The notes: generated from the letters alone by a model not told the origin. A stretch of DNA of 62,371 bases from a virus (IMGVR_UViG_3300032318_002859:1-62371), one strand, 5' to 3'. Positions 1,362 through 56,674 are shown, counted from the stretch's first letter. Translations and numbers: made by a program.

Positions 1362-1634
1362 GTGGACCGACGAACCGAAATGGCGCAACTGGCAACGGAG
1401 CTGCTGAGCGAGCAGATCAGGCCCGTGCGCATCTTGTCGCTCTCGGATGAGGGGGGCGAGCCCCAGGGCGAGTTTGAATCGAACCGTCAGCGCTTTAACT
1501 TCAAGTTCACCAGGGCCGGTGAGGTGACCTACAAGCCCAAGGGCCAGGGCGGCGGCGGTCGGGAGGACAGCGACATCCAGGACGGTCTCCAGGCCCGGAT
1601 CGAGCGCATGAAGGCCCGCCTGGGGGCATCGTGA
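1362..1634 (+). CDS. Small protein homologous to the N-terminal domain of 2047..4788; putative head-associated protein
   Basis: LLSEQ..IL..EG..G..F.F..AGEVTYKP aligns with LLAEV..VL..EG..G..F.F..AGVGYRP; ends REDS...LQARIERMK. Confidence 0.7.
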   Translation: MDRRTEMAQLATELLSEQIRPVRILSLSDEGGEPQGEFESNRQRFNFKFTRAGEVTYKPKGQGGGGREDSDIQDGLQARIERMKARLGAS

Positions 1635-2050
1635 TGAACTGGATCGAGGGCCTGCTGGATCCCCTGCTGGATCGCCTCGCCACGGAGCTGGCGCTCAAGG
1701 TCCGCGCCCAGCTGGATGGTGCGATTGATGCCGCGCTGGATCGGGCGGAAGACCGGATCGCCACGGCCTCCGAGGGGCTGGAGGAGCGGCTGCAGGCAGC
1801 GGCCACGAAGCCCATCGCAGACCTGAAGCTGGGGCTGGTCCTCCAGTTGCAGCATCAGGCGCTGGCGACCCTTGCACCGGGATCTCGACTCCTCACGAAC
1901 CAGGAGGTTGAGGAGGCGGCCAAAGCTGCCGGGATGACTCCCGCCGCAGACATGAGGGCCGCAATCACCTCCGCAGCCTCTTCGGTGCGTGCTGCCGCAG
2001 CGGACCGCCTGCGCAACCGCTTGAACTGGCCAAAGCGCCGTGATCGATGA
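1631..2050 (+). CDS. Hypothetical helical/coiled-coil protein
   Basis: Overlaps both neighbours by 4 nt; phage-like codon usage. Confidence 0.7.
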   Translation: MMNWIEGLLDPLLDRLATELALKVRAQLDGAIDAALDRAEDRIATASEGLEERLQAAATKPIADLKLGLVLQLQHQALATLAPGSRLLTNQEVEEAAKAAGMTPAADMRAAITSAASSVRAAAADRLRNRLNWPKRRDR

Positions 2051-4788
2051 GCCGACACCAGGCCCTGCAGGATCGTCTCCTGGCCATCGAGGCTCAGCTG
2101 GCGGTGTCCGCCCCGGTCGCCCCGGGCGCCCTGCCCCGGCCGCGCCGGCCTGGCTCCATGCGGCACGATGCCGCCGACCAGGTTTCACCGGTGCTGCAGC
2201 AGCTGCTGGCCGAGGTGCTGCCGGGTGCGTTGGTGCTCGACTGGCGGCAAGAGGGTGCTGGCCATGCCGGGCGGATGGCGGCCGATGGCCTGGTCTTCCG
2301 CTTCCGCGTTGATGCCGCCGGTGTCGGCTACAGGCCCGCCTGGGACGGCGTGCTGGAGCGTGGCTGGGAGATCCGATCCGACTCCTTCCTTCAGCTGCGG
2401 GCCCCTGATCTGCGGATGGACTTCCGCGGCAGTCCCCCCGCCTCGGGCCAGAAACGAAAATGCAAGACGGGCTATGGCTGTGGCAGCACCTGCATCTCCC
2501 TGCAGAAGGAGTGCCGGATCAGCCCGGGCAGCGCGCTGGGGAAGGCCCGGCTGCGGCGGCTGCAGCAGCTGGCGGCCGCTGGCGACAGGGGCGCCCAGGC
2601 CACCGCCGAGCAGGTGCAGGCCTCCAGGGGTGCGGCGGCGGCAGCGCGGCAGAAGGAGCGCAACACCAAGCGGGTGGAGCAGCTGCTGGCACGGCCGGAA
2701 ATCGCCGAATTCCTGCGCACTGGCAAGCTGCCAGCCGGAGCCAACAGCTCCACAGTGCCGGGCACCGTCCGGGAGATGAAGCCAGGGGAGATCAGCTTCG
2801 ATCCCAGTCGCTTCCAGTACAAGCTCAATGCCACCGCCACCACCGGCGAGGTGGGCAGCCTCTCGGGGGTGCGGAAGTGGGACGCCAACCTCTCCGGCGT
2901 GATGAGCGTCTGGAAGGACCCGGGCGACGACAAGGTCTACGTGATCAACGGCCACAATCGGCTGGCCCTGGCCAACCGCCTGGGGGCGGAGGCCGTCACC
3001 GTGCGGTTCTTCAATGCCGCCAATGCCACGGAGGCCCGGGCGATCGGGGCCCTGCAGAACATCGCCGAGGGCGCCGGCAGCCCGATGGATGCCGCGAAGT
3101 TCTTCCGCGACACCGGCATCAAGAGCCAGGCGGATGTGGAGGCCCGTGGCCTGCCCCTCGGCAGCGGCCAGGCCGACAAGGGCCTGAAGCTCAGCCGGCT
3201 GCCTGGGGACGTGTTCAACGCCGTGGTGCGGGGCGACCTGACGGTGAACCGCGGCGCGATCATCGGCGGCAGCGGTCTCGAGGAGGCGAAGCAGCGGGAG
3301 GTGTTCAAGATGATCAGCTCCCGCAAGGGCATCGCTGATCAGACCCTCCAGGAGCTGGTGGAGCATGCCGCCGCCAGCCAGCAACGCACCCAGACCACGA
3401 TGAGCCTCTTCGGGGAGACCCAGGAGGCGAAGGACAACCTGATCACCCGGGCCAAGCTCTCCGCCGGCCTGAAGGCCAAGATCAGCCGGGAGAAGCGGCT
3501 GTTCAGCACCGTCAGCAAGGCCCGGGCAGCCACCACGCTGCAGCAGAAGGGGGGCAACGTGATCAACCAGGAGCAGAGCGCCAAGGTGGCCGGCGAGGCC
3601 AGCGAGGCCCTGGGAGTGTTCGAGCGGCTGAAGAGCTCCGCCGGCCCGATCAGCTCGGCCCTCAACCGTGCCGCCGATCGGGTGGAGGCCGGCGAATCAG
3701 AGGCCAAGGTGCGGCAGGAGCTGGAGCGGGATGTCTTCGCGGCGGTGCAGGCGGAGCTGGAGGCGGTGGGGCTGCGCAAGCGGCCCCGGGCCGACTCCCT
3801 GGAAACCCGGATTGATGCTCTCAAGCGAAAGTGCCAGACGGGCTATGGCTGCGGGTCGAGCTGCATCTCGATGAGCAAGCAGTGCCGCAAGACCCCCGGC
3901 GCCGGTCCCGGCCAGCAGAAGATGCAGCGCATCCTCGCCCTGGCAAAGCCAGGCCTGGCCATTCCGGCAACAGCCGCACCATCAGAGCAAAAAGCACAGC
4001 CCAAACGGGGTCAGCCTGCTCAGGCTGCCAAGCCCGCGAAGGCCGATCAGCCTGCCAATGCATACAACGTCGAGCAAGAGTTCGAAAAATCCACGAAAAT
4101 CCTTGGCGAAACAATGACCGCGGCTGTCAAGCTGACGAAAGGGCCACCGCCTGGTGTTGTGAAGAAAGGCCGGATTGGAGAAAACGAGGCGGAGATTCTC
4201 AAGAAGCTTGCAGATAGTGGAGTCACGCCGCAGCTACTAGGGGTGTCGATCACAGGCAAGTATTCCAGAGGCATGGGGACCGTTCTCTCTGCCAACGGCT
4301 TTCTGGCTATGTCGCAAATGGAAGGCGTCCCCTACGTGACAATGCAGTTCACGGCTTCAGACGAAGAGAAAATCAAGGCAAGTGAAGAATACATCCGAGT
4401 CAGAAAGAAGATCCACTCTGAAGGAGTGGCGCACAACGACATGCACGCTGGGAACTTTTTTTATGACCGCAAGACTGGCAAGGGCGGCGTCGTTGACTTT
4501 GGGCTCTCGGAAATCGGCTATAGAAAAGCCTTGATAGAGGCCCTGGGGACGCTTGATGGCAAGGACTTTCAAGCAAAGAGCACAGGCATCAGTAGGGACC
4601 AGTCTCCGATGATGGCTAGGCTTTGGGATAATACGAGGAAGGTAGTGAAGACTATGGAGAAAGAGCACGGGATAAGGGGGGACTTGCCCAAGCTGAGATC
4701 AAGAGAGAAAAAGGTTGACGCCTATCTGGGCTCACTTTCTGAAGACCAGGCGCGTAAGCTGGTTGCGGCTATCTACGAGGGGCTATGA
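2047..4788 (+). CDS. Polyvalent protein: N-terminal domain, Cys4 motif, ParB/Srx-like domain, second Cys4 motif, C-terminal protein-kinase-like domain
   Basis: VYVINGHNRL (ParB-like); VVKKG, HNDMHAGN, VDFGL (kinase); two KCxTGYGCGSxCISxxKxCR motifs. Confidence 0.85.
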   Translation: MSRHQALQDRLLAIEAQLAVSAPVAPGALPRPRRPGSMRHDAADQVSPVLQQLLAEVLPGALVLDWRQEGAGHAGRMAADGLVFRFRVDAAGVGYRPAWDGVLERGWEIRSDSFLQLRAPDLRMDFRGSPPASGQKRKCKTGYGCGSTCISLQKECRISPGSALGKARLRRLQQLAAAGDRGAQATAEQVQASRGAAAAARQKERNTKRVEQLLARPEIAEFLRTGKLPAGANSSTVPGTVREMKPGEISFDPSRFQYKLNATATTGEVGSLSGVRKWDANLSGVMSVWKDPGDDKVYVINGHNRLALANRLGAEAVTVRFFNAANATEARAIGALQNIAEGAGSPMDAAKFFRDTGIKSQADVEARGLPLGSGQADKGLKLSRLPGDVFNAVVRGDLTVNRGAIIGGSGLEEAKQREVFKMISSRKGIADQTLQELVEHAAASQQRTQTTMSLFGETQEAKDNLITRAKLSAGLKAKISREKRLFSTVSKARAATTLQQKGGNVINQEQSAKVAGEASEALGVFERLKSSAGPISSALNRAADRVEAGESEAKVRQELERDVFAAVQAELEAVGLRKRPRADSLETRIDALKRKCQTGYGCGSSCISMSKQCRKTPGAGPGQQKMQRILALAKPGLAIPATAAPSEQKAQPKRGQPAQAAKPAKADQPANAYNVEQEFEKSTKILGETMTAAVKLTKGPPPGVVKKGRIGENEAEILKKLADSGVTPQLLGVSITGKYSRGMGTVLSANGFLAMSQMEGVPYVTMQFTASDEEKIKASEEYIRVRKKIHSEGVAHNDMHAGNFFYDRKTGKGGVVDFGLSEIGYRKALIEALGTLDGKDFQAKSTGISRDQSPMMARLWDNTRKVVKTMEKEHGIRGDLPKLRSREKKVDAYLGSLSEDQARKLVAAIYEGL

Positions 4789-4961
4789 ACGACCAAAAAA
4801 CAAGCCAGGCGGAAAGCTACCTTGAGTTAATGGAAACGAGAAAGAATCTGCTGTTCGCAGGTGACAACGCCGCTGCGGACAGGCTTCTTGACAAGGCCCA
4901 GCAAATGCAAAAAGCTGGGCTTGTCGCGGCCGAAGAGACTCTGGCCGCTGCCTACCTCTAG
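4785..4961 (+). CDS. 58-aa helical protein coupled to kinase gene (candidate immunity/partner); absent from ORF track
   Basis: ATGA overlap at 4785-4788; MNDQKTSQAESYLELMETRKNLLFAGDNAAADRLLDKAQQMQKAGLVAAEETLAAAYL*; same lower-GC block. Confidence 0.7.
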   Translation: MNDQKTSQAESYLELMETRKNLLFAGDNAAADRLLDKAQQMQKAGLVAAEETLAAAYL

Positions 4962-4982
4962 CCGCGGCTCCAACCAAGCTGA

Positions 4983-5210
4983 TCAGAGCCCCAGCAGCAG
5001 GGCCGGGTCGATCGCCAGCAGCAGGCAGATCGAGCGGAGCTGCCCTGGGTTGGGATCACGCTCACCCGAGCACCAGCGGCTGACGGCGCTTCGATCCACA
5101 TCCAGCTGCTCCGCCAGGCGCTGCTGGGAGACGCCGCGTTGCTGCATGATCACCCCCAATCGTGCACCCAACAGGCGCCGCACCATTGCGTCTGGCAGGA
5201 GTGTCGGCAC
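4983..5210 (-). CDS. XRE/Cro-C1 HTH transcriptional regulator
   Basis: RGVSQQRLAEQLDVDRSAVSRWCSGERDP. Confidence 0.85.
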   Translation of the reverse strand: MPTLLPDAMVRRLLGARLGVIMQQRGVSQQRLAEQLDVDRSAVSRWCSGERDPNPGQLRSICLLLAIDPALLLGL

Positions 5211-5285
5211 TGTGCGTTTATGGCATCAACAGCGGAAACGTAAGGCCGGCTGACCCATCTTGCTGGCAGCTCCTGCTATCTGCCG

Positions 5286-6584
5286 GTGCAATTCCGCTTC
5301 GATCGCTCCAGCCTCTCCGGCAACTGGGTGCAGACCCCTGAGGGCTTTCTGCGCATTCGCGCCACCTTCAGCCGCAGCGGCTGCCAGACCTACACCAATC
5401 CGGATGGGTCGAAGCGGGTCGAATATCGGCCCCCGGAAGAGGTGTCCCGCCCGGACTCCCTCCTCTCGATGGGCGGCCTGCCGGTGACGCTGGAGCATCC
5501 GCCCCAGCTGCTCACTCCCGACACCGTGCGGCAGCACACCCGAGGGTACAGCGGCACCCAGGTGGAATACACCGACGGGTTTGTGCATGGCGTCGTGACC
5601 CTCACGGATCGTGAAGCCATCAATGCGGTGAAGCGCGGCGATGCCACGGAGCTTTCCAACGGCTACCGCTGCGAGTACGACCCCACCCCTGGGGTGGCGC
5701 CTGATGGCACCCGGTACGACGGGGTGCAGCGCAACATCAGCGGCAACCACCACGCGGTGACCCGCAAGGCGCGAGCGGGCTCGGAAGTGCGCCTGCACTT
5801 CGACTCCGCCGATGCCGACGACCCGCCGACCGTCGCGGTGTCCACCGATCTCATCCCTTCCTTCGAGGATCCCTCCATGGCCAACCAGTCCACCGATCGC
5901 ACCGATAAGGCCGGCCGCCAGGCCCCCCCGCCAGCCGCCACTGAAGAGGAGGGGATGGAGGACGACAACTACGAGAAGATCGAAGACCAGGGCGTGGAAG
6001 GCCAGATGGAGCCTTCCAGCGGCAAAGCACCCAAGCGCCGGCCCCGAGGCGATTCGGCCGCAGCTTCTGGCCGGACTGTCCCCTGGGAGGTCTACAAGGC
6101 CACCCTTGATGACCTGGCGGCTGCCGAGCTGCGGTTCGACAGCCTCTCGGAGCAGCTGAGCGAGCTGGAGCAACTGGTGGCCGAGCGGGCCGATTCCGCA
6201 CCGGAGCCCGATCCTGAGCTGATCCAACAGCTGGTGGCCCAGCGCGTCGACGTGTTGGAGAAGGCCGGGGAGATCATCGGCAAGCGCGAGCGGCACGACG
6301 GCCTGACCAACCGGGAAGTGATGGAGCTCGCCCTGGAAGCGGCCGAAGTGCGGATTGATGGCCTCGAAACCCGCAGCGATGAGTACGTCGCCGCGCGCTT
6401 CGACGCCGCCTACGAAGCCGCCGACAAGGTGCCGTACAAACCCGACGCCGCCGCGATCCTTGCCCGCCAGCTGCAAGGCATCACCCCGGGCCCCCGCACC
6501 GACAGCGGCGCAGACGGCATCGCGGCGGCCGCGGCTGAACACCAGGAAGCGCTGTCAACGGCCTGGCAGCAGACCAGCAGCTGA
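5286..6584 (+). CDS. DUF2213-type prohead protease fused to scaffold
   Basis: TPEGFL, YRPPEEV, PVTLEHP, ELSNGY, QRNISGNHHAV..ARAG; acidic helical C-terminus; upstream of capsid genes. Confidence 0.88.
   Translation: MQFRFDRSSLSGNWVQTPEGFLRIRATFSRSGCQTYTNPDGSKRVEYRPPEEVSRPDSLLSMGGLPVTLEHPPQLLTPDTVRQHTRGYSGTQVEYTDGFVHGVVTLTDREAINAVKRGDATELSNGYRCEYDPTPGVAPDGTRYDGVQRNISGNHHAVTRKARAGSEVRLHFDSADADDPPTVAVSTDLIPSFEDPSMANQSTDRTDKAGRQAPPPAATEEEGMEDDNYEKIEDQGVEGQMEPSSGKAPKRRPRGDSAAASGRTVPWEVYKATLDDLAAAELRFDSLSEQLSELEQLVAERADSAPEPDPELIQQLVAQRVDVLEKAGEIIGKRERHDGLTNREVMELALEAAEVRIDGLETRSDEYVAARFDAAYEAADKVPYKPDAAAILARQLQGITPGPRTDSGADGIAAAAAEHQEALSTAWQQTSS
5877..6584 (+). CDS. Probable nested in-frame scaffold protein (internal start)
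   Basis: GAGGA SD at 5865-5869 before in-frame ATG 5877, just after protease domain; analogous to lambda C/Nu3. Confidence 0.55.
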   Translation: MANQSTDRTDKAGRQAPPPAATEEEGMEDDNYEKIEDQGVEGQMEPSSGKAPKRRPRGDSAAASGRTVPWEVYKATLDDLAAAELRFDSLSEQLSELEQLVAERADSAPEPDPELIQQLVAQRVDVLEKAGEIIGKRERHDGLTNREVMELALEAAEVRIDGLETRSDEYVAARFDAAYEAADKVPYKPDAAAILARQLQGITPGPRTDSGADGIAAAAAEHQEALSTAWQQTSS

Positions 6585-6624
6585 CGCCAGCTGATCCCTT
6601 CTCACCTCCTCCCCCACACGACCC

Positions 6625-7191
6625 ATGGCCCAGACCTTCACAAACAATCCCGGCACCGTTGATGCCGGTGTCGGCCGCGACTACACGATGCTGATGGGCA
6701 TCGGCCGCGTCGGCGAGCTGTTTGACATCAGCGTCAGCGACACGATCAGCGGCAACAACGAGACCAACGCTCGCATCCCCTTTGGGGTGCCGCTGGTGCG
6801 CAACGGCTCCGGGGTGCTGCCAAACTCCGCCCAGGTGATCTCCGCCGCCGGCACCAGCATCGGCCTCTCGGTGCTCACCGACGTGCAAGAGGTGGCCCAT
6901 CGCCAGGCCGCCGTCCCGTATCAGGCCGGCATCCTGCCCGGCAGGGGGATCAACATCCTCAAGAAGGGCGCGATCTACATCGAGGTGTGGGAGGCCATCG
7001 CCCCCGGCAACGCCTTGCGCTACTTCAAAAGCGGCACCAACGCCGGCAAGTGGGGCAAAACGGCCAGCGCCGGCAACAGCCTGCTGCTCTCGGCCGGCAA
7101 CTGGGAACTCGAGCGGGGGGCCGCGGCCAATGGCCTGGCAGTCCTGCGGATCAACACTCCCGCCCTGCTGACGTTCACCGCTGACGCCTAA
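6625..7191 (+). CDS. Capsid decoration/cement protein
   Basis: Between scaffold and capsid; IPFGVPLV..INILKKGAIYIEV. Confidence 0.75.
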   Translation: MAQTFTNNPGTVDAGVGRDYTMLMGIGRVGELFDISVSDTISGNNETNARIPFGVPLVRNGSGVLPNSAQVISAAGTSIGLSVLTDVQEVAHRQAAVPYQAGILPGRGINILKKGAIYIEVWEAIAPGNALRYFKSGTNAGKWGKTASAGNSLLLSAGNWELERGAAANGLAVLRINTPALLTFTADA

Positions 7192-7243
7192 TCCTTCTCC
7201 CCTTCGCCCATCCCGCCTGATTCCCCTGCCCTCCCGGAGACCC

Positions 7244-8179
7244 ATGAGCCACCGAATGGACGACGCCTACCAATCTGGGGCGTTCCTCGCAGACCAGCTT
7301 CAGCACATCATCCCCGGTGTGCTGCGTAAACCCTATCCGGAAATCGTCTACCCCAGGATTTGCCCTGTCTCATTTGAGGTGAATCCTGGTGCCACTTCGA
7401 TCAAACAAGCGCTTTGGGATCGTACCGGCAGCTTTGATTTAATCAGTGATGCCGCCGATGATCTTCCCCGCTCCGGCGTGAAGATTGGTGAAATCGTCAA
7501 CGAAATCCGCGAATTTGGCGGTGCATTCGATTACACCCAAAAAGAGCTGCTGGCCGCGAAGACGGCGGGTGTGAGCCTGCCCACCGAGAGGGCAGACGCC
7601 GTCCGCGATGCCTACGAGCGCCGCAACAACACGACCTGCCTATTCGGCAGAGCTGGCACCGGACTGCGCGGCATGTTGAACCACCCGGCCATTGACCGAG
7701 TGGTGGTGACTGGCAACAACAACGATGCCTGGTTCAACGATCCCAACACCACCCCCCAGCAAATGCTGGATCTGATGAACTTCGGCGTTACCCAGATGGG
7801 CCTCAACTCCAAGCAGATCGAGGTGCCCAACACCGTGCTGATGGGCCTGAGCGATTACCGCATTGTGAGCACCACCTGCCGCTCCTCCACGAGCGACACC
7901 ACCGTGCTGGATCTGTTCCTGAAAATGAACACCAGCATTACATCGGTGCTGCCAATCAACGAGCTGGATCCAGCCAACAGCAACGGCAACCTTACGGCTC
8001 GCCGAATGATCATCTACAAGAAGGATCCTGAAAAGGGGAAGTTCCATATCCCCTTGCCAATTACATTCCTGCCACCCCAGCCCAAGAACCTGAAATTCGT
8101 CGTGCCGTCAATGAGCAGCTGCGGCGGTTTCATTCCGACTCATCCCCTCGCTTTCTTCTACGTCGAAGACGGCGGCTGA
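7244..8179 (+). CDS. Major capsid protein (DUF2184/encapsulin-like HK97 fold)
   Basis: 311 aa; FLADQLQHI, ADDLPR, GLRGMLNHP, NELD; position. Confidence 0.88.
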   Translation: MSHRMDDAYQSGAFLADQLQHIIPGVLRKPYPEIVYPRICPVSFEVNPGATSIKQALWDRTGSFDLISDAADDLPRSGVKIGEIVNEIREFGGAFDYTQKELLAAKTAGVSLPTERADAVRDAYERRNNTTCLFGRAGTGLRGMLNHPAIDRVVVTGNNNDAWFNDPNTTPQQMLDLMNFGVTQMGLNSKQIEVPNTVLMGLSDYRIVSTTCRSSTSDTTVLDLFLKMNTSITSVLPINELDPANSNGNLTARRMIIYKKDPEKGKFHIPLPITFLPPQPKNLKFVVPSMSSCGGFIPTHPLAFFYVEDGG

Positions 8180-8226
8180 TCCAGCCAATTTCCTGATCTC
8201 CTCATCCCCATCTCCCCAACTTCGCG

Positions 8227-8745
8227 ATGACCACGACCCCCACCAAGCCCGGCCCCAAGGACGCTTCACCCCCGGATGCCCGGCTGGCCTCTGCCCCTGC
8301 GGAGGCCCAGCCGGCCCCTGCCAGCGAGGACGTCCAGCTGGCGGTGGTCTATACCCCCGAGCTCAACGAGGCCTGCTTGCAGAGCGTGCGGGGCGGATCG
8401 CTGAGCTGGGCCTTCGGGCCCGTCACCAACCCCACCACCCTGCGGATCAACCCGGGCCTGAATGCCCCGGTGCCCCGCGAACTGTGGGAGCGGGCGAAGC
8501 AACGCCCCGACACTCAGATCCTGATGGGCCGCGGCCTGATCCAGGAGATCGAGCTGACGGACGGCGCCACCAATGCCGACGGCCAGCTCTCGCTGGCTGC
8601 TGTGCCCCCGCCGGTGGCGATGCGGCTGATCTTCGGCTGCCGCAACACCGAGCAGCTGGAGGGCTGGCTGCGCAAGGAGGACCGCCAACAGCTCCGTGAG
8701 CGCCTGGCGGCGCGGATCAAGGAAATCAACGACGGCAGGCCCTGA
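8227..8745 (+). CDS. Hypothetical head-associated protein
   Basis: Follows capsid; LRINPGLN; phage-like codon usage. Confidence 0.7.
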   Translation: MTTTPTKPGPKDASPPDARLASAPAEAQPAPASEDVQLAVVYTPELNEACLQSVRGGSLSWAFGPVTNPTTLRINPGLNAPVPRELWERAKQRPDTQILMGRGLIQEIELTDGATNADGQLSLAAVPPPVAMRLIFGCRNTEQLEGWLRKEDRQQLRERLAARIKEINDGRP

Positions 8746-8746
8746 C

Positions 8747-9052
8747 ATGGCAGCGCCCACCCTGGCCGAATTCCTCGACCGCTTTCCAGAGATGGAGGTG
8801 CACACCCACGTACAGCTGGAGCAGGCCCTGCAGACCGCCGGCCGGCGCTGCAGCGAGGCGGTCTGGGGTGATCTGCACGGCGATGGGGTGGGCCTGTTCG
8901 CCGCCCACCTCATCGCTGCGCGCATCCGAGAGGTGGGCGCCCAGGTGGGCCAGGCGGTGCCGTCCGCCGGCAGTGGCCTGGAGTCCACCCACTACGGGCA
9001 GCAGTTTGTCCAGCTGCAGTCCTGCCTGACGCTCACCGGCTTCCCGATCTGA
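8747..9052 (+). CDS. Head-tail adaptor (DUF4054-like)
   Basis: FLDRFPEM..W..GLFAAHLI..LESTHYGQQF. Confidence 0.8.
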   Translation: MAAPTLAEFLDRFPEMEVHTHVQLEQALQTAGRRCSEAVWGDLHGDGVGLFAAHLIAARIREVGAQVGQAVPSAGSGLESTHYGQQFVQLQSCLTLTGFPI

Positions 9053-10341: not shown

Positions 10342-10393
10342 CCCAGCGGATCACCCCTTCTTCCCTTCTCCCTGACCCTTCACGGAAACCACC

Positions 10394-48449: not shown

Positions 48450-48658
48450 ACCCTGATGATCAGCCCGGATGACGATCATCTCCATCGCCAGCGGCTTTGC
48501 TGCTGCTTCCCAAGCGCTGGTGGGATGACGTGGGTCTGTACCTGGACTGAGCGTTACGACCGGTGAACGGGCCCATGGCCGCCCGCACCTTCCGCTACTT
48601 GTGCGTTACAGTATGGGGACCGGGGGCGAAGAAGCTCCCCACCTAACACCTTCCAGCC

Positions 48659-49195
48659 ATGCCGACCCCCACGGCCACACCGACGGTCATGACCACCACC
48701 ACCGACCAATTCCCCGACCACGTTGCCGGGGATCCATATTGTCTCAATCGTGAAGAGTTTATTAGATTTGCAGGATTACAGGAGGATTACGATGCTTTCC
48801 TGAAAGTGCTGCAGCAAAAGGCGGCAGGCGGCAGACTGCCTGGGAACGGGCATAATTACGAGCCCGAGAGCCAGGCCTTCTGGGCCGCCATCGCTTCGTT
48901 TGAGGCGATGCGCAGGTTTCACTCAGATTCGGATTGCTGCGACAGCTTTGTATCTATGGAGGTTGGCCACAACGCCGCCGGGCCCTCTCAGATCGAATGG
49001 AGTTACGAAAGTACTTCAGGTACGACATTTGCCGCGACTGAATGGCGAAAGTACAACGACCCAACATCAGAAGAGGACGAGCCGGCCACATTGCCGGAGC
49101 CGATGTTCGTTGTCCAAATCCCGGCCACGCGCGACACGCCAGGTCGTACCCACTATGAAGCCCTCCGCCGGGGCGGAAGTTATCGCGACTTCTGA
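48659..49195 (+). CDS. Hypothetical acidic protein (moron)
   Basis: Lower GC; own leader hairpin upstream. Confidence 0.6.
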   Translation: MPTPTATPTVMTTTTDQFPDHVAGDPYCLNREEFIRFAGLQEDYDAFLKVLQQKAAGGRLPGNGHNYEPESQAFWAAIASFEAMRRFHSDSDCCDSFVSMEVGHNAAGPSQIEWSYESTSGTTFAATEWRKYNDPTSEEDEPATLPEPMFVVQIPATRDTPGRTHYEALRRGGSYRDF

Positions 49196-49251
49196 CCCAC
49201 CCACGGCCCGCCGGTGCCTATCCGGCATCCCATCCCACCGCATTGACAGCC

Positions 49252-49401
49252 ATGTTTCGCTACGAAGTTTCCTTCACCCTCACCGGCTCGACCCGCCTGA
49301 TGGTTGAGGTCAAGGCCGGCAACGCACCGTGGGAGGCGACCGATCAGGTGCGGGCCGAATACGGCGCCGACATCAAGGTCATTCAAACCCGGTGCCTCTG
49401 A
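49252..49401 (+). CDS. 49-aa hypothetical protein
   Basis: MFRYEVSFTLTG..QTRCL*; stop overlaps next ATG. Confidence 0.5.
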   Translation: MFRYEVSFTLTGSTRLMVEVKAGNAPWEATDQVRAEYGADIKVIQTRCL

Positions 49402-49571
49402 TGACTGACCCCACCACCCCAGACCCCTGGGCAGCCCTCAGGGAAGCCCAGCAATCGCTGATCCGGGCGGCGGGTCACATCCGCGGCCGCGAGGGCCACA
49501 GCGCTGCCTACCGCGCGGCGGCGAACGCTGCGGATCGTGCCCGTGCTGTTCTGGTGGAGAGTGGTGCCTGA
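49401..49571 (+). CDS. Hypothetical protein
   Basis: MTDPTTPDPWAALREA; coupled. Confidence 0.5.
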   Translation: MTDPTTPDPWAALREAQQSLIRAAGHIRGREGHSAAYRAAANAADRARAVLVESGA

Positions 49572-49773
49572 CCCCAGCAAGTGGGCCCGCTACCGGGCCC
49601 GGCTGGACGGTGAGCTTCCCAAAGTGCCTCTGTGCCCCGAGTGCAACAGGCAGATTCGCGGCGCTGGCCGTGATGGCCTCTGTTCTCGCTGCTGGGCGGT
49701 CACGCCAGCTGGACGGGAAGACATCAGGCAGCGGGTGGCGCGTTCCCGCTCCCGCCGTCGTGCATCAGACTGA
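49564..49773 (+). CDS. Small Zn-finger protein
   Basis: CPEC..LCSRC, basic tail. Confidence 0.6.
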   Translation: MPDPSKWARYRARLDGELPKVPLCPECNRQIRGAGRDGLCSRCWAVTPAGREDIRQRVARSRSRRRASD

Positions 49774-49819
49774 CGGCAGCAACACCCCCGCGCCCGCAGG
49801 GCCGAATCCAGAGCGGGGG

Positions 49820-50173
49820 TCACTCTTCAGGCAGCTTGGTGCTGTCTCTGCCAGCCAGCCAGAGCACGGCGGAGCGCACCACCTCCGCATGGCAGGGCAG
49901 GGGGGCGCACCAGCAGAGCAGCTCCAGCTCACCGGCGCGGGCCTGGGCGACCAGGCGCCTCAGCTCTGCTTCCTGCGGTGAGCCCGGATACTGCAGTTGC
50001 GCCCAGAGCCAGCGCCGATATTTGGCGATCACCTCCTCTCGGCTGCCATCCCGGCCCAGGACATAGGGATTGCCCAGCGGGCTGGGGCGCCCCACATAGG
50101 ACTGGCCGGGCAGCAGACAGCCGGTTCCCCGTCGTGCGCGCCCGATGCTGATCTGCAGGGATTGGCTGTTCAC
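49820..50173 (-). CDS. DUF4326 protein
   Basis: YVGRPSPLGNPY..REEVIAKYRRWL..LLCWCAPLPCHAEV. Confidence 0.88.
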   Translation of the reverse strand: MNSQSLQISIGRARRGTGCLLPGQSYVGRPSPLGNPYVLGRDGSREEVIAKYRRWLWAQLQYPGSPQEAELRRLVAQARAGELELLCWCAPLPCHAEVVRSAVLWLAGRDSTKLPEE

Positions 50174-50354
50174 GGGGGCGCGGGGTGGAGAGGGGCGGTC
50201 GGCGGCGTCGGCCGTTGCTGGACCTGGCCATGGTGAGCTGACTGGGTTGTGGCCTGGCAACAGCTGCACCGCTACCTTGTGATTTCCCAAGGACACCGCC
50301 CCCGTGAGCCGTCGGCTTGCGGGGGTTTCCCTTGGGGCTTGTGAACTGAGAGCC

Positions 50355-50852
50355 TCAACCGCGTGGGGCAGCAGCAGGCCCGTGAGGATCTTCCGCCTCG
50401 AGAAGCAGCGGCGAGCTGATCACCCGCCAGCGCTTCGCGAGCACCGTCTGGTGGCCCGCCAGAAAGCCTCTCACCGTGTGGTGGGACAGCCCATAGGACG
50501 CAGCGAAGGCCCGCTCCTGGCCCACAATGATTTCCCGTCGGCGGCCGCAGGTCACCTCTCCAAGGATCCACCGCGGCGCGCTGGTGTCATCGGGCTGGGC
50601 ATCGGCAGAGCGCTTCACCCACCAGATCCACGTCCCCCCGGAGTTGCTTCTCGTCACCCGCCGAAGGAGTCCCCGTCTCTCCAGCTGGGCCAGCCCGCGG
50701 TTCAGGGTGGCACGATCTGTGCCCAGCTGCTCCGCCAGGTCGGTGAGCGTGGGCCACCAGTTGGGCACCAGCTGCTCGATCTGCACCAGCAAGATCACAA
50801 GCTCTGCCCGCAGCTCACGCCGCAGCTGGGCCAAGAAGGCCGGCTGAATCAC
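50355..50852 (-). CDS. Winged-HTH (MarR-like) protein
   Basis: WPTLTDLAEQLGTDRATLNRGLAQLERRGLL; GTGA-coupled start. Confidence 0.7.
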   Translation of the reverse strand: MIQPAFLAQLRRELRAELVILLVQIEQLVPNWWPTLTDLAEQLGTDRATLNRGLAQLERRGLLRRVTRSNSGGTWIWWVKRSADAQPDDTSAPRWILGEVTCGRRREIIVGQERAFAASYGLSHHTVRGFLAGHQTVLAKRWRVISSPLLLEAEDPHGPAAAPRG

Positions 50853-51172
50853 CGAGGCCGCCGCCACCCCATCAGAAAAACCAGCCGCTGCCATGCCCGC
50901 CGCCGGCGCCAGAACCACCTGCTGAGCCTGATGCGCCACATGGGGGGCTTGGTGGTGGCAATCGCAAGGTTGAGTTCGAGCTCGGCAATCCGATCGGTCG
51001 CTCGCCGGATGATGCTGGCCTGCATGGCGTTCTGCTTCGCCAGGCCAAGGCAGAGCGCCGTCACCTCGCTTGGTCGGTGACGAATTGCCTGCTGGAGCTC
51101 CAGCTCCAGTGCCCGCAGCCGAAAAGCCTCCTCCGGCCTTAACTCTGGAACCATCCAATCGGCCCAGGCCAT
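50849..51172 (-). CDS. Hypothetical protein
   Basis: WMVPELRPEEAFRLR..IRRATDRIAELE. Confidence 0.7.
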   Translation of the reverse strand: MAWADWMVPELRPEEAFRLRALELELQQAIRHRPSEVTALCLGLAKQNAMQASIIRRATDRIAELELNLAIATTKPPMWRIRLSRWFWRRRRAWQRLVFLMGWRRPR

Positions 51173-51173
51173 C

Positions 51174-51473
51174 TCAGCGGCCCTCTGATGCGACGCCCAT
51201 CCGCCGCGGCGGATGCCACAACACGCGCACGGAGCGGGGAACGCCGGGGATGACCGAAATGGCCCCGGCCTTTGCCAGCTTCCGGAAATGCGCCTGCACT
51301 GTGGACGTGGAGGCCAGCCCCCGTGCCCGCATCACGTCCCGAAAGCTGGGTGGGATTTTGTGCTTCTTGATGTAGCCGCGCACGGCTTCAAGGATCAGCT
51401 GCTGCGCTGGGGTGAGCCCTCGTTCCGTCTGGATCTCGGCCGCGGCCACCAACGGCTTCCCCTTCTCCAACAT
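51174..51473 (-). CDS. LexA-like DNA-binding domain only
   Basis: LTPAQQLILEAVRGYI..PPSFRDV..GLASTSTVQAHFRKL..G..PRSVRVL; no peptidase domain. Confidence 0.85.
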   Translation of the reverse strand: MLEKGKPLVAAAEIQTERGLTPAQQLILEAVRGYIKKHKIPPSFRDVMRARGLASTSTVQAHFRKLAKAGAISVIPGVPRSVRVLWHPPRRMGVASEGR

Positions 51474-51528
51474 GAACTCGCGACGTCGTGGCCCTGGGGC
51501 GAGCCTAACCCTGAATGGTGCATCAGTG

Positions 51529-52452
51529 CTATGCCGATGGTGAGAACAGGCTCAGCTGCCGCTCGACCAGCATCCCGTCGCCCTCGCCAGGGGTCAGGCC
51601 GTCATGGTTGGCCAGCACTCGCGCCAGAGCCGTCCCTTTTGCCTCCAGCCGCACCGTTGCCGCCCTGGTGAGCCCCATGGCGCGGCTGACATCCGCATGG
51701 CTCTGGCCGGACAGCAACCGTGCCATCACCTCCTGAACATCGGGCCATGGCTGGAGAACCTCCAGCACCACCTCCCAGTCGTCGTCCGTGACATCGGCGG
51801 CCGGAGCGGCAACAGTGCTGCCCCAGCTCTCGCCGTCTTCATCTCCCCCCAGGAAGGCATCGAGCGAGATCACCTGCCGGACCGCGGCAGCCTTGCGCAG
51901 CAGCAGCAAATCCGCCGCAGAAAGATCCAGGGCCTCCATCGCTTCTGCATCCGTCGGTGAGCGGCCCTCCCGGGCGGTGAAGGCCTCCACCCACTGCCGC
52001 AACCGATTCATGCTGGCCGCCCGCTTCACCGGGACCTTCACGGGGCCGGAGGTATGCAGGAGCACATTCATGCTCTGCCGGATCCACCAGACCGCGTAGG
52101 TGGAGAACGTACACCCCCGGGCCGGATCGAATTTTTCCGCCGCTCGGATCAGCCCGATCGCGCCTTCCTGAATGAGGTCTTCCACATCCAGCGCCACGAT
52201 CGTGCGGATCGAGAACGCGCGAGCCTGCCTCGCCACCAGCAGCATGTTTCGCGCCACCAGCTGATCACGGGCCCGCTGCCCCGCCCGCTTCAACCCTGGA
52301 GGCGGCTGCGTTTTCCCTTTCGCCACTTGCTCCGGTGACGGCTCCCAGTCCAACCAAGCCCGGATTGCCCGGCCCAGCAGGAGCTGCTCCTCCCGCGAGG
52401 GGATGGGCAGCCGTGCATAGGCCGCCAACAGGGAATCGAGTGACGAGCCCAT
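51529..52452 (-). CDS. RNA polymerase sigma-70 family factor (RpoD-like)
   Basis: DLIQEGAIGLIRAAEKFDPARGCTFSTYAVWWIRQ; ISLD. Confidence 0.93.
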   Translation of the reverse strand: MGSSLDSLLAAYARLPIPSREEQLLLGRAIRAWLDWEPSPEQVAKGKTQPPPGLKRAGQRARDQLVARNMLLVARQARAFSIRTIVALDVEDLIQEGAIGLIRAAEKFDPARGCTFSTYAVWWIRQSMNVLLHTSGPVKVPVKRAASMNRLRQWVEAFTAREGRSPTDAEAMEALDLSAADLLLLRKAAAVRQVISLDAFLGGDEDGESWGSTVAAPAADVTDDDWEVVLEVLQPWPDVQEVMARLLSGQSHADVSRAMGLTRAATVRLEAKGTALARVLANHDGLTPGEGDGMLVERQLSLFSPSA

Positions 52453-52554
52453 CCGGCAAGGGCTGGTGTTCGCCCAAGCCTATGGGCTGAAACGTCGCGA
52501 AGCCGTGATGTAGCCGACTCAGTTGGCCTAGCCTGGCCCTGTGCGCACCGAACC

Positions 52555-54522
52555 GTGGCGATCGGATTCCTGCAGTTTCCAGAGCAATCCGGCTACCGCT
52601 TGGATGGGGCACTCATCAATGTGCTCACCGGGCTGGGCACTGCCAAGGACCGGAACGAGGCGATCGGCGTCAAGCGCAGCCGCATCCTCTCCGAAGCTGC
52701 CGTCAACGCCCTCTACGAGCAGAGCTGGCTGATCCGGCGGATCGTTGACAAGATCCCCCAGCAGGGCACCCGCAGCGGCTGGGACCTGAGCGTGGGCGAC
52801 GAGACCTCCTCCAAGATGAAGGCCGCTCTCGATGACCTGGCCGGCTGGACGGAAAAGCTCCGTCTCCGCCGGTCCCTGGCCGCGGCATGGAGATACAGCC
52901 GCCTGTTTGGCGGCGGGGCGCTGATCCTGATCGCCGATGACCGCACGCCGATCGATCAACCGCTCAACCTCCGGCGGTTGCGCACCATCCACGGCCTCTA
53001 CCCGATCGATCGCTGGCGCCTTTACCCCGCCTCCGGCTGGTCAGGCCTGGGGGAACCGGAACTCTATTGGTTCTGGACCCAGAAGGATCGGGATCTCGAG
53101 CAGCTGAACGAGCAGGCTGGAGCCACGCAGGTGACCAGCAGCGGCCTGGGCATCACCGATGCCACCCAGGTGGAAATCCATGGCAGCAGGGTGATCCGCA
53201 TCCAGGGGCTTCCCTGCTCCTGGCGATCCGAGCAGGAGCGGCAGGGCTGGGGAATATCGGTGGTGGATCTGGTCTGGGATGTCTTCAAGAGATGGGAGAC
53301 GGGCCAGCAGTCCGCCAGCGACATCCTCCACGACTTCGACCTGGTGGTTCACACGCTGCCGGGCCTGGCCAACATGCTCGCAGCAGGGGGAGAAGACAAG
53401 CTCCGCCAGCGGCTGGAGGCCAACAGCATGGCCCGCTCCACCATCGGCGCCTACCTGCTGGACGGCAACGAAACGCTGACCAACCTCAACCGCTCCGCCG
53501 CCGGCATCGCCGACATCCTCACCTCCCTGAAGAGCGAAATCACCGGCGCCAGTGGCCTCCCGCACACCCTGCTGTGGGGCGAAAGCCCCTCGGGCCTGGG
53601 GGCTGACGGCCGCAGCGAACAGGCCGCCTTCGGGAACGAGGTGGCCGATCTGCAGGCGGAAACGCTCATGGATCCCCTCCGGCGGATCTACGAGCTCGCC
53701 ATGGCCTGCTCTGACGGGCCTTGGGAAGGGAAGGCGCCGCCGGCCGACTGGGAGATCACCTTCCGCCCCACCTACACCCCCACGGAGGACGAACAGGCCG
53801 ACTTGCGGCAGAAGGTGGCCACGGCCGACAGCCAGTACATCACGAACCAGGTGCTGCAGCCCAACGAGGTGGCGCTGGCGCGGTTCGGCAAGCCGCGCTT
53901 CAGCCTCGATACCACCCTGCTGAACCGCAATCCGGATGGGTCGATCCCCGCGCCGAAGGACACCCCACCGGTGGACTTCGGCGGCTCCCTTGAGGACGAT
54001 CCGGCGGCCGCGGGCTCAGAGGCCGCGGCGGCCGACCAGCCTCCCCCCAGCGAGCCCTCGTTCTCCGGTGCCGAACCCGCGCCAACGCCCCCCCGCAACG
54101 ATGCGGAGGAGGAGCCGTGCTGCAGCGACTGCGAAGCCCGCGCTCAGGAGCTGGCCCAGCAGATCACGGAGCACCGGGGGCGCCGGAAGCGCCGCCGCGA
54201 TGAGGTGCCCCGCAACGATGCCGCCGGCCAGGTGCATCAGATCCTGGGGGTGACCGTGCGGATGGATGGGCCGGGCATCGGCCGCCTGCAGGGCCCCTAT
54301 GGGCAGACCCTGCCCTACCCCGTGGCGGTGGGCCCGGATCTCAGCGGCATGTGGGAGGTGTTCGAGCCGGCCAGCGGCGCCTACCTGCTGGCCCTGGGCC
54401 ACCAACACCAGCGGGGCCTTCGGGATGCCATCGGCGCCGCCGCCACCATCCGCCGAATCGATGGCATCGACCTGGTGGCCATGGGCGCAGTCTGCGATTC
54501 CTACCTTGCTGGAGAGGCCTGA
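52555..54522 (+). CDS. Portal protein (DUF1073-type) with C-terminal extension
   Basis: NVLTGLGTAKD, YSRLFGG, IHGSRVI, ASGLPHTLLWGESPSGL. Confidence 0.9.
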   Translation: MAIGFLQFPEQSGYRLDGALINVLTGLGTAKDRNEAIGVKRSRILSEAAVNALYEQSWLIRRIVDKIPQQGTRSGWDLSVGDETSSKMKAALDDLAGWTEKLRLRRSLAAAWRYSRLFGGGALILIADDRTPIDQPLNLRRLRTIHGLYPIDRWRLYPASGWSGLGEPELYWFWTQKDRDLEQLNEQAGATQVTSSGLGITDATQVEIHGSRVIRIQGLPCSWRSEQERQGWGISVVDLVWDVFKRWETGQQSASDILHDFDLVVHTLPGLANMLAAGGEDKLRQRLEANSMARSTIGAYLLDGNETLTNLNRSAAGIADILTSLKSEITGASGLPHTLLWGESPSGLGADGRSEQAAFGNEVADLQAETLMDPLRRIYELAMACSDGPWEGKAPPADWEITFRPTYTPTEDEQADLRQKVATADSQYITNQVLQPNEVALARFGKPRFSLDTTLLNRNPDGSIPAPKDTPPVDFGGSLEDDPAAAGSEAAAADQPPPSEPSFSGAEPAPTPPRNDAEEEPCCSDCEARAQELAQQITEHRGRRKRRRDEVPRNDAAGQVHQILGVTVRMDGPGIGRLQGPYGQTLPYPVAVGPDLSGMWEVFEPASGAYLLALGHQHQRGLRDAIGAAATIRRIDGIDLVAMGAVCDSYLAGEA

Positions 54523-54553
54523 TGCCCTATCTCCACACCGAGGTTTCAGTGAG

Positions 54554-56674
54554 ATGAGCCAGATGATCACCCTGCAGAAGCGAATCGACGCCCTCAGGCG
54601 GAAATGCCAGACGGGCTACGGCTGCGGCTCGACCTGCATCAGCCTTCGGAAGGAGTGCCGCACCACCCCCCGCAGCGCCATGGGGAAGGAGAGGCTGACG
54701 CGCCTGCTGGCCCTCGCCGCCGGCGGCGCCTCCTCCCAGCGCGGGATCGCGCCGGTGAAGGCCAAGGAGGCAGGGGCGATCGCCGCGGGCATCACCACCC
54801 GGCGAAGCGAGAAGGCAACCCAGCTGCAGGGGGCCCGCCAGCAGGCAGCGGCCGAGAAGGCCCGGGCGGCAGAGGCCGCGCCCTCCTCCAGCGCCAGTTC
54901 CAGCAGCACGGCGCCGCCCGGCACGCCCCGGGGAGAGGCAGACCGGGCGGCCAAGCAATTCGACCCCGACTACGAATTCGCCCGGCCGTCAGCTGTGGGC
55001 AACGTCGGCGAGGACCTGAAAGGCTCCGCCCGCCACATCCGCAATCAGTGGCGCTCCTTGGCAGAAGCGGAAGCCGATGGCTCGGCCGCGGCCCTGGTCA
55101 CCAGGGACAAGCTGCTGAAGGCCGAGTCCATCGATTTGACGGAAGGGCTCACCAACGTCAACTACCTCACCCGGCTCGCTGGCCATCTGGCGCTCAAATC
55201 GTTTCCGGCGCAGCCCTACACCGAGAAGGCTTTCACGCACTACAACCTCGCCCAGATCACGGGCAAGAAAACCCCGGCGGAGATGCGCAAGCTCTACTAC
55301 GACCATCTTCAGGATGTGAAGGGGATCATCGACAGGCACCGGGATGATGCTGACCCCCGCGACATGCTCGCGGAGATCTCCAGGGCCACCGTCGACCGGA
55401 TCGGTGCCATCAGGGGCAATCGAGCCGAGGCCACATCCGACCGCTACAACCCACTGGCCAACTCGCTGGTGGACCTCAGCAAGAAGGCAAGCCAGGGCAG
55501 CTACGCCAAATCGTCCATCGCTGGGCAGATCAACACCCTGGGGGTTCGCCTGAGGCGTGCCAATGACGGGAAGAACATCACTGAGCTGGCCGATGTGATG
55601 CGCAACGCCACGGAGGAGATCCTGGGCGGCGCTTCCATCGACAAGGTCACCGGAGTGCAGCGGGGCGGGGTGACTTTCAATCCCGCCGATCTCTACGTGA
55701 AGAAGGCTATCCGCACCGGCGGCCGGGCTTTGGGAGTCGACGACAGCCCAGCTGGCTCCACCACGGTGCTGACTAGCCGGATGGGGATGCGGGGCCTGCA
55801 GTTTGGCAACAGCGTCACCGATGATGAGCGCGCCCACCACCTGCGCAAGACCGCCGAGGCCCTGGTGGACCTGGCGGACGTGACCGGTCTCCCCGATCGG
55901 GCCATCTCCCTCGACGGCCAGCTGGGCCTGGCCTTTGGTGCCAGGGGCAAGGGACGGGCCGCGGCGCACTACGAACCCGGCACGAAAGTGATCAACATCA
56001 CCCGAAAGAACGGCGTAGGCACCCTCGCTCACGAATGGGGACACGCCCTCGATGACTACATCGGGGCGCGATCTCCGAGGGGCCAATCTTTCGCGAAGAC
56101 CGGCGACATCTACCTGAGCGAGCAAACCAGCGAGCTCTACTTTGACCGCAGCGGCCGGGGCACAAAAAGCCAGGCAGACGATCCAGTCTGGAAAGCCATG
56201 GATGGGGTCCGCAAGGCCATCAAGGACACCGACTATCCCCAGACCCTCAGGGAAGGGCTGCGAGGATACGGCATCACCCCACAGTCAAGTAAAGGCCAAT
56301 GGAACTATTGGACATCAGGTCGCGAGGTCTTCGCCAGGACCTTTGAGCGGTACGTGCAGCACAAGCTGAGGAGCAAGGAGCAGGAGAACACCTATCTCTC
56401 GGGCCTGGGCGGTGAAAGTCCCCTGTGGCCTACCAAGGAGCAGATCGCGAAGATGGCGCCCGCCTTCGATGAGCTGATGAGTGCGGTGGGCGCCAACACC
56501 TTCGGCGGCATGAAGCGCCGCACGGATAGCCGTGAGGAGCGGATCCAGCGGCTGATTCGCGAGGCGATGGCACTCCATCGTGATCCCTACCCTATGAAGA
56601 ACAGCGTCAAGGCCTTGCTGGATTCCGCCTTGCAAACCCACATTGATGCTCTGCGCGCCCTTTGTGGCGCCTAA
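54554..56674 (+). CDS. Polyvalent protein: RIDAL/Cys4 N-terminal tag plus zincin metallopeptidase/LPD1 domain
   Basis: GLQFGNS, LAFGARG, AHYEP, LAHEWGHALD, YWTSGREVFARTFERYV. Confidence 0.85.
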   Translation: MSQMITLQKRIDALRRKCQTGYGCGSTCISLRKECRTTPRSAMGKERLTRLLALAAGGASSQRGIAPVKAKEAGAIAAGITTRRSEKATQLQGARQQAAAEKARAAEAAPSSSASSSSTAPPGTPRGEADRAAKQFDPDYEFARPSAVGNVGEDLKGSARHIRNQWRSLAEAEADGSAAALVTRDKLLKAESIDLTEGLTNVNYLTRLAGHLALKSFPAQPYTEKAFTHYNLAQITGKKTPAEMRKLYYDHLQDVKGIIDRHRDDADPRDMLAEISRATVDRIGAIRGNRAEATSDRYNPLANSLVDLSKKASQGSYAKSSIAGQINTLGVRLRRANDGKNITELADVMRNATEEILGGASIDKVTGVQRGGVTFNPADLYVKKAIRTGGRALGVDDSPAGSTTVLTSRMGMRGLQFGNSVTDDERAHHLRKTAEALVDLADVTGLPDRAISLDGQLGLAFGARGKGRAAAHYEPGTKVINITRKNGVGTLAHEWGHALDDYIGARSPRGQSFAKTGDIYLSEQTSELYFDRSGRGTKSQADDPVWKAMDGVRKAIKDTDYPQTLREGLRGYGITPQSSKGQWNYWTSGREVFARTFERYVQHKLRSKEQENTYLSGLGGESPLWPTKEQIAKMAPAFDELMSAVGANTFGGMKRRTDSREERIQRLIREAMALHRDPYPMKNSVKALLDSALQTHIDALRALCGA

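Follow-up and report, generated by a model that had tools for sequence, protein, structure and literature searches.

The DNA analysed here is a virus record of 62,371 bases (IMGVR_UViG_3300032318_002859, positions 1–62371; hereafter the window), assigned to a phage of freshwater cyanobacteria, that carries direct terminal repeats (DTRs), is rated 100% complete, has a G+C content of 64.6%, and has as its nearest relatives in the genome collections contigs binned with Cyanobium metagenome-assembled genomes. A first-pass annotation had reported that an 18-residue motif with four cysteines (Cys4) occurs three times near its head genes. This was borne out with a degenerate DNA pattern encoding C-x-T-G-Y-G-C-G, which matched exactly three sites, all on the + strand, compared with 0.01 expected from shuffled sequence; none of 100 shuffles reached three. 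The translations of these sites are CKTGYGCGSTCISLQKEC (2461–2514), CQTGYGCGSSCISMSKQC (3832–3885), and CQTGYGCGSTCISLRKEC (54605–54658). A RIDAL helix precedes two of the copies as claimed, with LETRIDALKRK before copy 2 and LQKRIDALRRK before copy 3; copy 1 lacks this helix, and what precedes it is an R-M-D-F site behind an N-terminal domain that is folded. The related helices that had been listed alongside are likewise present, with LQARIERMK ending the open reading frame (ORF) at 1362–1634, LQDRLLAI starting the ORF at 2047, and REERIQRL and LQTHIDAL lying at the end of a protein with an LPD1 domain.

On sequence grounds, a previously undescribed header domain of approximately 100 residues, with the Cys4 motif as its core, starts each effector module. 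The header is laid out as an R-x-D site, a basic stretch, the core CxTGYxCGxxCIx5C, and then helices. Across 59 distinct stretches of 64 residues, there is no variation at the four Cys (C15, C21, C25, and C32), two Gly, the Tyr, or the Ile, and the sequences of the header alignment are 38–84% identical to the first one. Conservation reaches approximately 85 residues past the first cysteine (Cys1), through a helix, an R-G-I-G-like turn, and a second helix, and strongly basic residues flank the core (e.g., KRKC...K.CR...GKERLKRL). The header was matched by no Pfam or NCBIfam model, including zinc-finger models, and by no known nucleic-acid-binding family; its sole match in a scan of PHROG was phrog_33618, to which no function is assigned there. 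An ESM Atlas search with header residues 1–110 returned no usable match, and no description of this header was found in the literature searched. The core is a putative zinc knuckle, with C15, C21, C25, and C32 as four invariant ligand residues in all 59 sequences. Counting against this assignment, the isolated header models poorly with AlphaFold2: a 64-residue piece was predicted as a helix, a hairpin (residues 19–26), and a helix, with a mean predicted local distance difference test (pLDDT) of 57.4, and the case for a zinc knuckle is therefore made by the spacing of the Cys residues and the predicted hairpin. The three window copies differ by 7–12 synonymous codons of 38, indicating that the protein is what is conserved, and the header is kept from Cyanobium phages of 65% G+C to the cultured Planktothrix phage PaV-LD, listed at 41% G+C in a table of PMC6293099, and contigs of 36–40% G+C.

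On the circular map, the Cys4 genes lie where they had been placed, between the portal gene (52555–54522) and the protease and capsid genes (5286–8179), an arc that also holds the MuF gene, a serine integrase, and other genes. The portal protein (52555..54522, + strand) matches PF06381 at 1.1e-62 over amino acids (aa) 50–426. Slot 1 has the fixed order portal, header protein(s), and MuF, and is closed by a MuF-family head morphogenesis protein (56678..58066, +; PF04233, 1.6e-8, aa 234–338). Slot 2 has the fixed order of two small genes, a polyprotein with an N-terminal domain and headers, protease, cement, and capsid. The last three are a prohead protease (DUF2213) with a scaffold-like C-terminal part rich in R-x-D (5286..6584, +; PF09979, 7.1e-39), a capsid cement protein (6625..7191, +; PF22758, 3.1e-15), and a major capsid protein with the N-terminus MSHRMDD (7244..8179, +; PF09950, 1.3e-43).

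The slot-2 polyvalent cargo protein (2047..4788, +; 913 aa by translation, with two header matches) is ordered as N-terminal domain, header 1, a mid domain with NGHNR, header 2, and a kinase-like domain. AlphaFold2, run on 13 sequences, predicts a folded N-terminal "anchor" domain (2182..2400, +) of a helix, four strands, and a helix, with pLDDT 81–88 over model residues 30–110 and below 50 in the R-M-D-F linker after it. The model returned 0 PDB fold matches at E ≤ 0.001, and the idea that the domain is a copy of the protease N-terminus was rejected (hhalign E 0.17). In some slot-2 polyproteins of related loci (L018, L033, and L040; e.g., L040:88–200), the N-terminal domain is preceded by SLFGVTEYDETMPLF, which we take to resemble a sliding-clamp-binding peptide. 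The R-M-D-F sequence (2413..2424, +) is a putative head-protease site before header 1, with R110 and D112 invariant in the alignment, and further R-x-D sequences occur nearby at 2161, 2305, and 2374. Header copy 1 (2461..2610, +), comprising the Cys4 core at 2461–2514 and the next helix, matches the header profile at E 4.5e-28. The C-terminal part of phrog_21 matches aa 230–558 of the 913-aa protein at 4.9e-49. The mid domain (2734..3726, +) had been called ParB-like, a label for which the searches gave no backing, as there was no Pfam match at E ≤ 5 and no PDB sequence match with either the single sequence or a profile. Its NGHNR (2947–2961) is invariant in 12 homologues and may resemble the ParB box. 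Header copy 2 (3787..3981, +) consists of R-A-D-S (3787), R-I-D-A (3808), the Cys4 core at 3832–3885, and a helix. The payload behind it (4000..4785, +) is kinase-like, of the APH/ABC1/protein-kinase fold (APH, 5.2e-7; HNDMH, 4432–4446; DFG, 4495–4503). The protein-kinase assignment was upheld when the domain was scanned alone, with APH scoring 30.1 bits against a cut-off of 23.2 and both HNDMHAGN and DFG present.

The two small genes of slot 2 are also conserved. The first (1362..1634, +) encodes a 90-aa protein with the helix LQARIERMKARL at its C-terminal end, and in related loci it is likewise found ahead of the polyprotein of slot 2. It is possibly a stand-alone copy of the anchor fold that lacks Cys4 and cargo, its alignment to the N-terminal domain being weak (hhalign E 0.0015, probability 16%). 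In one related locus (L017), the domain of this protein is fused to a chain in the order header, DnaJ, header, and zeta toxin. The second (1631..2050, +) encodes a conserved helical protein of 139 aa that travels with slot 2, being found beside the first gene and the polyprotein in seven related loci (including L011, L029, L036, L047, L051, and L054), and that has no Pfam or PHROG match.

The slot-1 cargo protein (54554..56674, +; ATG at 54554) consists of header 3, a linker, a zincin domain, LPD1, and a truncated second header. Header copy 3 (54581..54754, +; E 1.6e-32) comprises R-I-D-A (54581), the Cys4 core at 54605–54658, and a helix. The payload had been described as LPD1/zincin, and it carries both PF18796 LPD1 (1.7e-12) and a HEWGH zincin motif (56030–56044); phrog_616 is also matched, at 1.2e-44. 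Alignment to relatives identifies LQTHIDALRALC (56639–56665) as a header truncated at its first Cys. This remnant, HIDALRALC followed by a stop (56639–56674), ends the LPD1 protein four bases before the MuF start. At the same site, relatives hold a full second header and a module of approximately 170–200 aa (with a DnaJ match in this type), so the module seems to have been deleted from the window protein. The C-terminal extension of the portal just upstream, conserved in 13 sequences, contains R-N-D (54094), CCSDC (54118–54132), R-N-D (54211), and a domain of approximately 90 aa ending in CDSY. It was observed separately that this extension (54091–54504) resembles a degenerate header with a small payload (P-R-N-D, CCSDC, helix, and basic run) and that CCSDC plus CDSY supply four conserved Cys. 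A long open frame upstream of the slot-1 gene in the window is not kept in relatives, and a programmed frameshift from the portal into the slot-1 gene was rejected because relatives have stops 27–46 codons before Cys1.

The distribution of the header was examined with DNA patterns and protein profiles. The strict DNA pattern identified 49 viral-contig loci with 64 open frames containing the motif, which reduced to 33 proteins of at least 150 aa at 90% identity. When 1.84 billion cluster representatives were searched with a profile, 344 matched at E ≤ 1e-3 and 89 at ≤ 1e-10; the longest matching protein has 3,641 aa, and the number of matched stretches in a protein rises to six. A word-indexed search resulted in 147 proteins, and the names among its matches listed are "hypothetical protein", except for two "predicted ABC-type ATPase". 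Headers per protein were counted by hidden Markov model (HMM) in 258 proteins, namely 255 from the word-indexed and profile searches plus the window's two proteins and that of PaV-LD: 135 have one header, 92 have two, 28 have three, 2 have four, and 1 has five. Close-relative searches for the context of distant members returned a short unrelated domain match for one (P0185) and nothing for another (P0165).

The core motif was also seen apart from the large proteins. A looser DNA pattern (C..G..CGD.CI) matched 77 loci; among those listed, approximately 32 encode a distinct family of small 9-Cys proteins and approximately 17 encode large proteins, many with multiple headers, the rest being chance-like. 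The approximately 32 loci, within L073–L148 (e.g., L088:10207–10635 and L131:2767–3075), encode small phage proteins of about 50–200 aa that end in the motif CC.xC..G.ACGDSCI.....C..G.GCAC, which contains the same core C..G..CG..CI.....C. Four further small proteins (P0218, P0221, P0239, and P0252) have signal-peptide-like N-termini and the bare Cys4 core twice in tandem, and hence the core also exists outside phage cargo proteins.

A variety of payloads follows the header. Among the 33 non-redundant header proteins, Pfam identified LPD1 in 8, DnaJ in 6, APH in 3, ATLF-like in 3, RIO1 in 2, M90-like peptidase in 2, TCAD9 in 2, zeta toxin in 1, and ADP-ribosyltransferase (ART) in 1, and per-protein maps place each of these families behind a header. 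The same families appear in precomputed Pfam assignments among the 120 homologues listed, and distant members add LRAT, HipA_2, and Lipase_3. Several modules can share one chain, as in L047, ordered as N-domain, header, mid domain, header, unknown module, header, and ART. Diversity was counted by Pfam family since BLAST clustering of payloads collapsed: a single large cluster took 83 of 115 segments and then 286 of 431, likely because the conserved header extends approximately 85 residues past Cys1. The first-pass annotation's proposal of a portable unit carrying interchangeable effectors gained support, as varied payloads follow the header and the header is tied to head genes well beyond the window.

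The same annotation had suggested that the conserved DNA of the tag acts as a swap point for payloads, and this part is supported between genomes and not within the window. Header 2 of the window shares 80–100% nucleotide identity with headers of three related loci (L047, L038, and L003), though only from approximately codon −10 to codon +40 relative to Cys1; outside this region, identity drops to near 25%. The module ahead of this header subtype may be the mid domain, LPD1, or one of unknown type, and the one behind it is the kinase in the window and ART, a DnaJ-region protein, or another module in the three related loci. The header copies of the window are 51–61% identical in DNA with exact runs of 12–16 nucleotides, which makes them poor substrates for exchange with each other. 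Judged from their DNA, they are kept alike as protein and not by recent copying.

The tie to head genes was also found to extend beyond the window, with a head gene present in the fetched stretch of 41 of 49 related loci, which, being close kin, represent one lineage and not 41 independent cases. Of the eight loci with no head gene, five span only 3.2–5.8 kb and one (L027) looks spurious; a portal or MuF match is present in 31 of the 49. Two other phage types carry the header fused to the portal itself. In L124 and L098, the gene after that for a gpA terminase encodes a lambda-type portal (PF05136 Phage_portal_2, 3e-114, aa 40–383) that leads into a header at aa 647 with further sequence following, and in L091 a Mu-type portal (PF06074 Portal_Mu, 4.6e-81) continues into a header at aa 397. 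Neighbours and payloads in these portal-fusion phages include InPase, LPD1, LRAT, HipA_2, and Lipase_3. Two side observations concern the same phages: the portal–header junction DIFFDILPGLTRTFSPRKRAKNC is tandemly duplicated approximately 86 residues apart in L124:3421–6609, with one Cys lost (C to R) in the first copy, and a gene for an IS605 OrfB/Cas12f-like TnpB lies among the header cargo genes of L091 (6129–7505), a complete 70.8-kb phage.

PaV-LD encodes seven header ORFs (061R, 065R, 078R–081R, and 085R) in its structural region, located between the portal and tape-measure genes. ORFs 061R and 065R each precede a gene named "minor head protein" in RefSeq, and the depositors labelled 081R "virion structural protein" and 085R "minor virion protein". 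Some genes (ORF080R of PaV-LD; L119) start right at the basic Cys4 stretch, as a pre-cut form would. The central claims are directly testable, as PaV-LD is cultured.

The R-x-D sequence that precedes the header recurs in other head proteins. In the protease–scaffold protein of the window it occurs 14 times against 2.9 expected, a count reached by none of 2000 shuffles, and all 12 of 12 protease–scaffold homologues, the most distant at 42% identity, share the enrichment and keep several of the sites at fixed positions; the PaV-LD scaffold (ORF071R) has 15 against 4.1 expected. Cyanobacterial genomes supplied 16 DUF2213 proteins for the same test, of which 9 show the enrichment at p ≤ 0.005 and 3 more at p ≤ 0.055. 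Eleven of the genomes encoding these 16 proteins are among those listed in the header survey, where G001 has the header and G013 and G022 gave no match. An R-x-D lies within 28 residues before Cys1 in 365 of 420 unique headers (87%), compared with 204 of 1963 control windows from the same proteins, and the commonest position of the R is −8 from Cys1, as in R-I-D-A-L-K-R-K-C. At the N-terminus of the capsid protein, R-x-D is kept down to 42% identity (MSHRMDD and MATRLDA, with TTRLDAD in PaV-LD); it is conserved at the portal N-terminus and occurs twice in the portal C-terminal extension. Upstream motif and protease type were compared in five records: all three with DUF2213 show R-x-D before their headers, and the two lacking DUF2213 (with lambda-type and Mu-type portals) have mostly other conserved upstream motifs. 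In the window, R-M-D-F sits in a low-confidence linker after a confident AlphaFold2 fold. R-x-D is probably a head-protease cut site, since it is enriched in the scaffold, is conserved at the ends of the capsid and portal proteins, and stands before 87% of headers.

The remaining observations concern the ends of the record and genes around the head region. The record ends share a 24-base repeat (1–24 and 62348–62371), and one ORF crosses the end junction, running from 61946 through the end to 819. The head region is interrupted by non-structural genes at 49820–52452 and 58875–60392. Before the portal lie a LexA-like ORF (51174–51473, −) and a sigma-70-like ORF (51529–52452, −), both judged from translation only. 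A serine-recombinase-like integrase (58875–60392) lies between MuF and slot 2, and the MuF–integrase neighbourhood was seen again in relatives.

Together, these data suggest a model in which effector modules headed by the Cys4 domain are loaded into the head, cut, and injected with the header kept on the effector; we consider this about evenly poised between right and wrong. Each unit would open with an upstream anchor followed by R-x-D, a run of basic residues, and the four-cysteine knuckle CxxGxxCGxxCIx5C; a pair of helices and a flexible linker would then lead to the payload. The anchor may be a short helix at the N-terminus, a small folded domain there, or a fused portal, or it may be absent. 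Units would enter the procapsid together with portal and scaffold. There the DUF2213 prohead protease would cut at R-x-D, as in the scaffold and at the capsid and portal ends, to give separate effectors, each retaining the basic Cys4 header as its new N-terminus and exiting with the DNA at infection. The header would also serve as the joint for payload exchange between related phages, as it is the sole constant part. Packaging, cleavage, metal binding, and the header's own role are the steps that we infer. A broader claim is possible though clearly more tentative: that the Cys4 header and R-x-D together form a portable, self-sufficient code for loading, cutting, and injection in phages with a DUF2213 protease, that phages with lambda- and Mu-type portals have adopted the same Cys4 core with other cut sites, and that R-x-D is the first defined DUF2213 cleavage code.

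A number of observations weigh against the load, cut, and inject model. Besides the close kinship of the related loci, the header was found in only 2 of 401 sampled cyanobacterial genomes, in one of them weakly; 4 of the 16 DUF2213 proteins are devoid of R-x-D; and one header in L091, a phage lacking DUF2213, has R-G-D. Neither the LPD1 cargo protein (3 vs 4.0) nor MuF (0 vs 2.3) shows R-x-D enrichment, and the excess in the portal is not significant (6 vs 3.7, p 0.15). An alternative role for R-x-D would be as a structural element of helices, and both the virion presence and the cutting of header proteins are predictions from sequence.

The first-pass annotation had favoured the helix and Cys4 as a capsid address sufficient in itself, binding scaffold, portal, or capsid protein and so loading the fused cargo, and this we now find rather doubtful. 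Some genes begin directly with the header, which is thus the one part common to all modules: in 108 of 420 unique headers the distance from the annotated N-terminus is 28 residues or fewer, and some proteins that begin with the header share nothing else that is conserved, which leaves it as their sole common candidate for a loading signal. The N-terminal targeting sequence of phage T4 works in this way. A likeness between the header helix and a scaffold helix also exists in some lineages, with 6 of 19 comparisons reaching p ≤ 0.05 by Smith–Waterman alignment with shuffles; however, the other 13 are not significant, nor is the likeness overall (hhalign E 0.18, although the expected helix was picked), and scaffold mimicry stays no more than a lead. 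Headers also stand behind covalently fused portals and are repeated up to three to six times in one chain, where an address would be needless, and so the header is not only an address. Copy 1 of the window lacks the RIDAL helix, and the helix holds the R-x-D common to scaffold, capsid, and portal, giving it the look of a cut site and not of an address.

It is unlikely that the header is instead a working part of the effector, with its basic Cys4 knuckle binding DNA, RNA, or membrane and thereby tethering effectors to the genome or placing them in the host. The strongly basic surroundings of the core fit such a role, as do the hydrophobic, membrane-like stretches after the motif in distant members and the tandem bare cores of the small signal-peptide-like proteins, which suggest that the core can fold alone outside phage heads. 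The header nevertheless resembles no known nucleic-acid-binding family and found no Atlas look-alike, and binding by itself would leave its strict position at module starts and its tie to head genes unexplained. Very unlikely, in our judgement, is that the header is a conserved linker kept as recombination homology with no function as a protein, or that the proteins stay unpackaged and act in the producing cell. The confinement of 80–100% nucleotide identity to the region around Cys1, between flanks unrelated from genome to genome, and the joining of different payloads and upstream modules at the header are what recombination homology would give. Conservation of the protein with many synonymous differences, across 36–65% G+C, argues for a function as protein, and placement among late head genes together with portal fusion argues for packaging.

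Packaged effectors are the first viral proteins to face host defences, and how they are chosen for packaging is understood in very few phages (T4, P1, and giant phages). If the model of a loading header with a cut site is true, it would allow injected effectors, many of them of no known family, to be picked out of metagenomes by a rule on sequence, and would provide a candidate cleavage code for DUF2213, a widespread and uncharacterised head protease family. A header sufficient for loading would be a handle for placing chosen proteins into capsids. The system also illustrates the reshuffling of effector sets between related cyanophages at a fixed joint.

By its domain content, the system belongs to the polyvalent proteins of phage type described in 2017 by Iyer et al., whose main text (PMC5512222) presents them as multi-domain effectors encoded among late and head genes, proposes that they are packaged and injected, and suggests that their own zincin domains separate the modules. 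A zincin hub, LPD1, kinases, ART, and an InPase neighbour are common to that account and to the window system; in that main text the words "cysteine" and "Zn-ribbon" do not occur and no header is described, whereas the modules here start with a Cys4 header and a site that tracks the prohead protease. At least two unrelated domains per polypeptide, the mark of a polyvalent protein, are present in the 913-aa protein, and relatives carry up to three payloads; zincin and LPD hub domains and a location with portal and virion genes are likewise found in the window.

In phage T4, internal proteins carry an N-terminal capsid targeting sequence of approximately 10 residues, cysteine-free and with a Leu/Ile-x-Glu site, that is removed by the prohead protease gp21. 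The system proposed here would be similar in placing a signal and a protease site on proteins for prohead loading, trimming, and injection. The two have no sequence relation, and the window contains no short N-terminal peptide with a gp21-type site and protease. Unlike the T4 sequence, the header is a Cys4 domain of approximately 100 residues that would be kept on the cargo if cut at R-x-D, is repeated inside polyproteins, with many copies internal, and goes with a DUF2213-type protease and the recurrent site R-x-D.

Jamet and colleagues reportedly described in 2017 MuF-fused polymorphic toxins of temperate phages. Such systems and those with portal-fused effectors resemble the present one in attaching variable effectors to a head-assembly protein; portal–header–payload fusions do occur with this header, and phrog_21 includes long portal fusions. 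The window differs in that its cargo is encoded by genes of its own, with the Cys4 header in common, and its MuF protein (462 aa) shows only PF04233 at aa 234–338, with no fused toxin. We know of no report of a Cys4 header in MuF-toxin or portal-fused effector systems.

The payload of slot 1 has a counterpart in the phages that carry Shiga toxin (Stx) genes, as aa 405–641 of the slot-1 protein are approximately 39% identical to a large polyvalent protein of Stx phages. The match is limited to aa 405–641, and none was returned for the header region. The zincin–LPD1 payload of the window is homologous to the Stx-phage polyvalent proteins, and for a protein of that kind, gp47 of Stx phage phi24B, bioRxiv 10.64898/2026.04.10.717836 reports detection in virions by proteomics and proposes a role in ejection.

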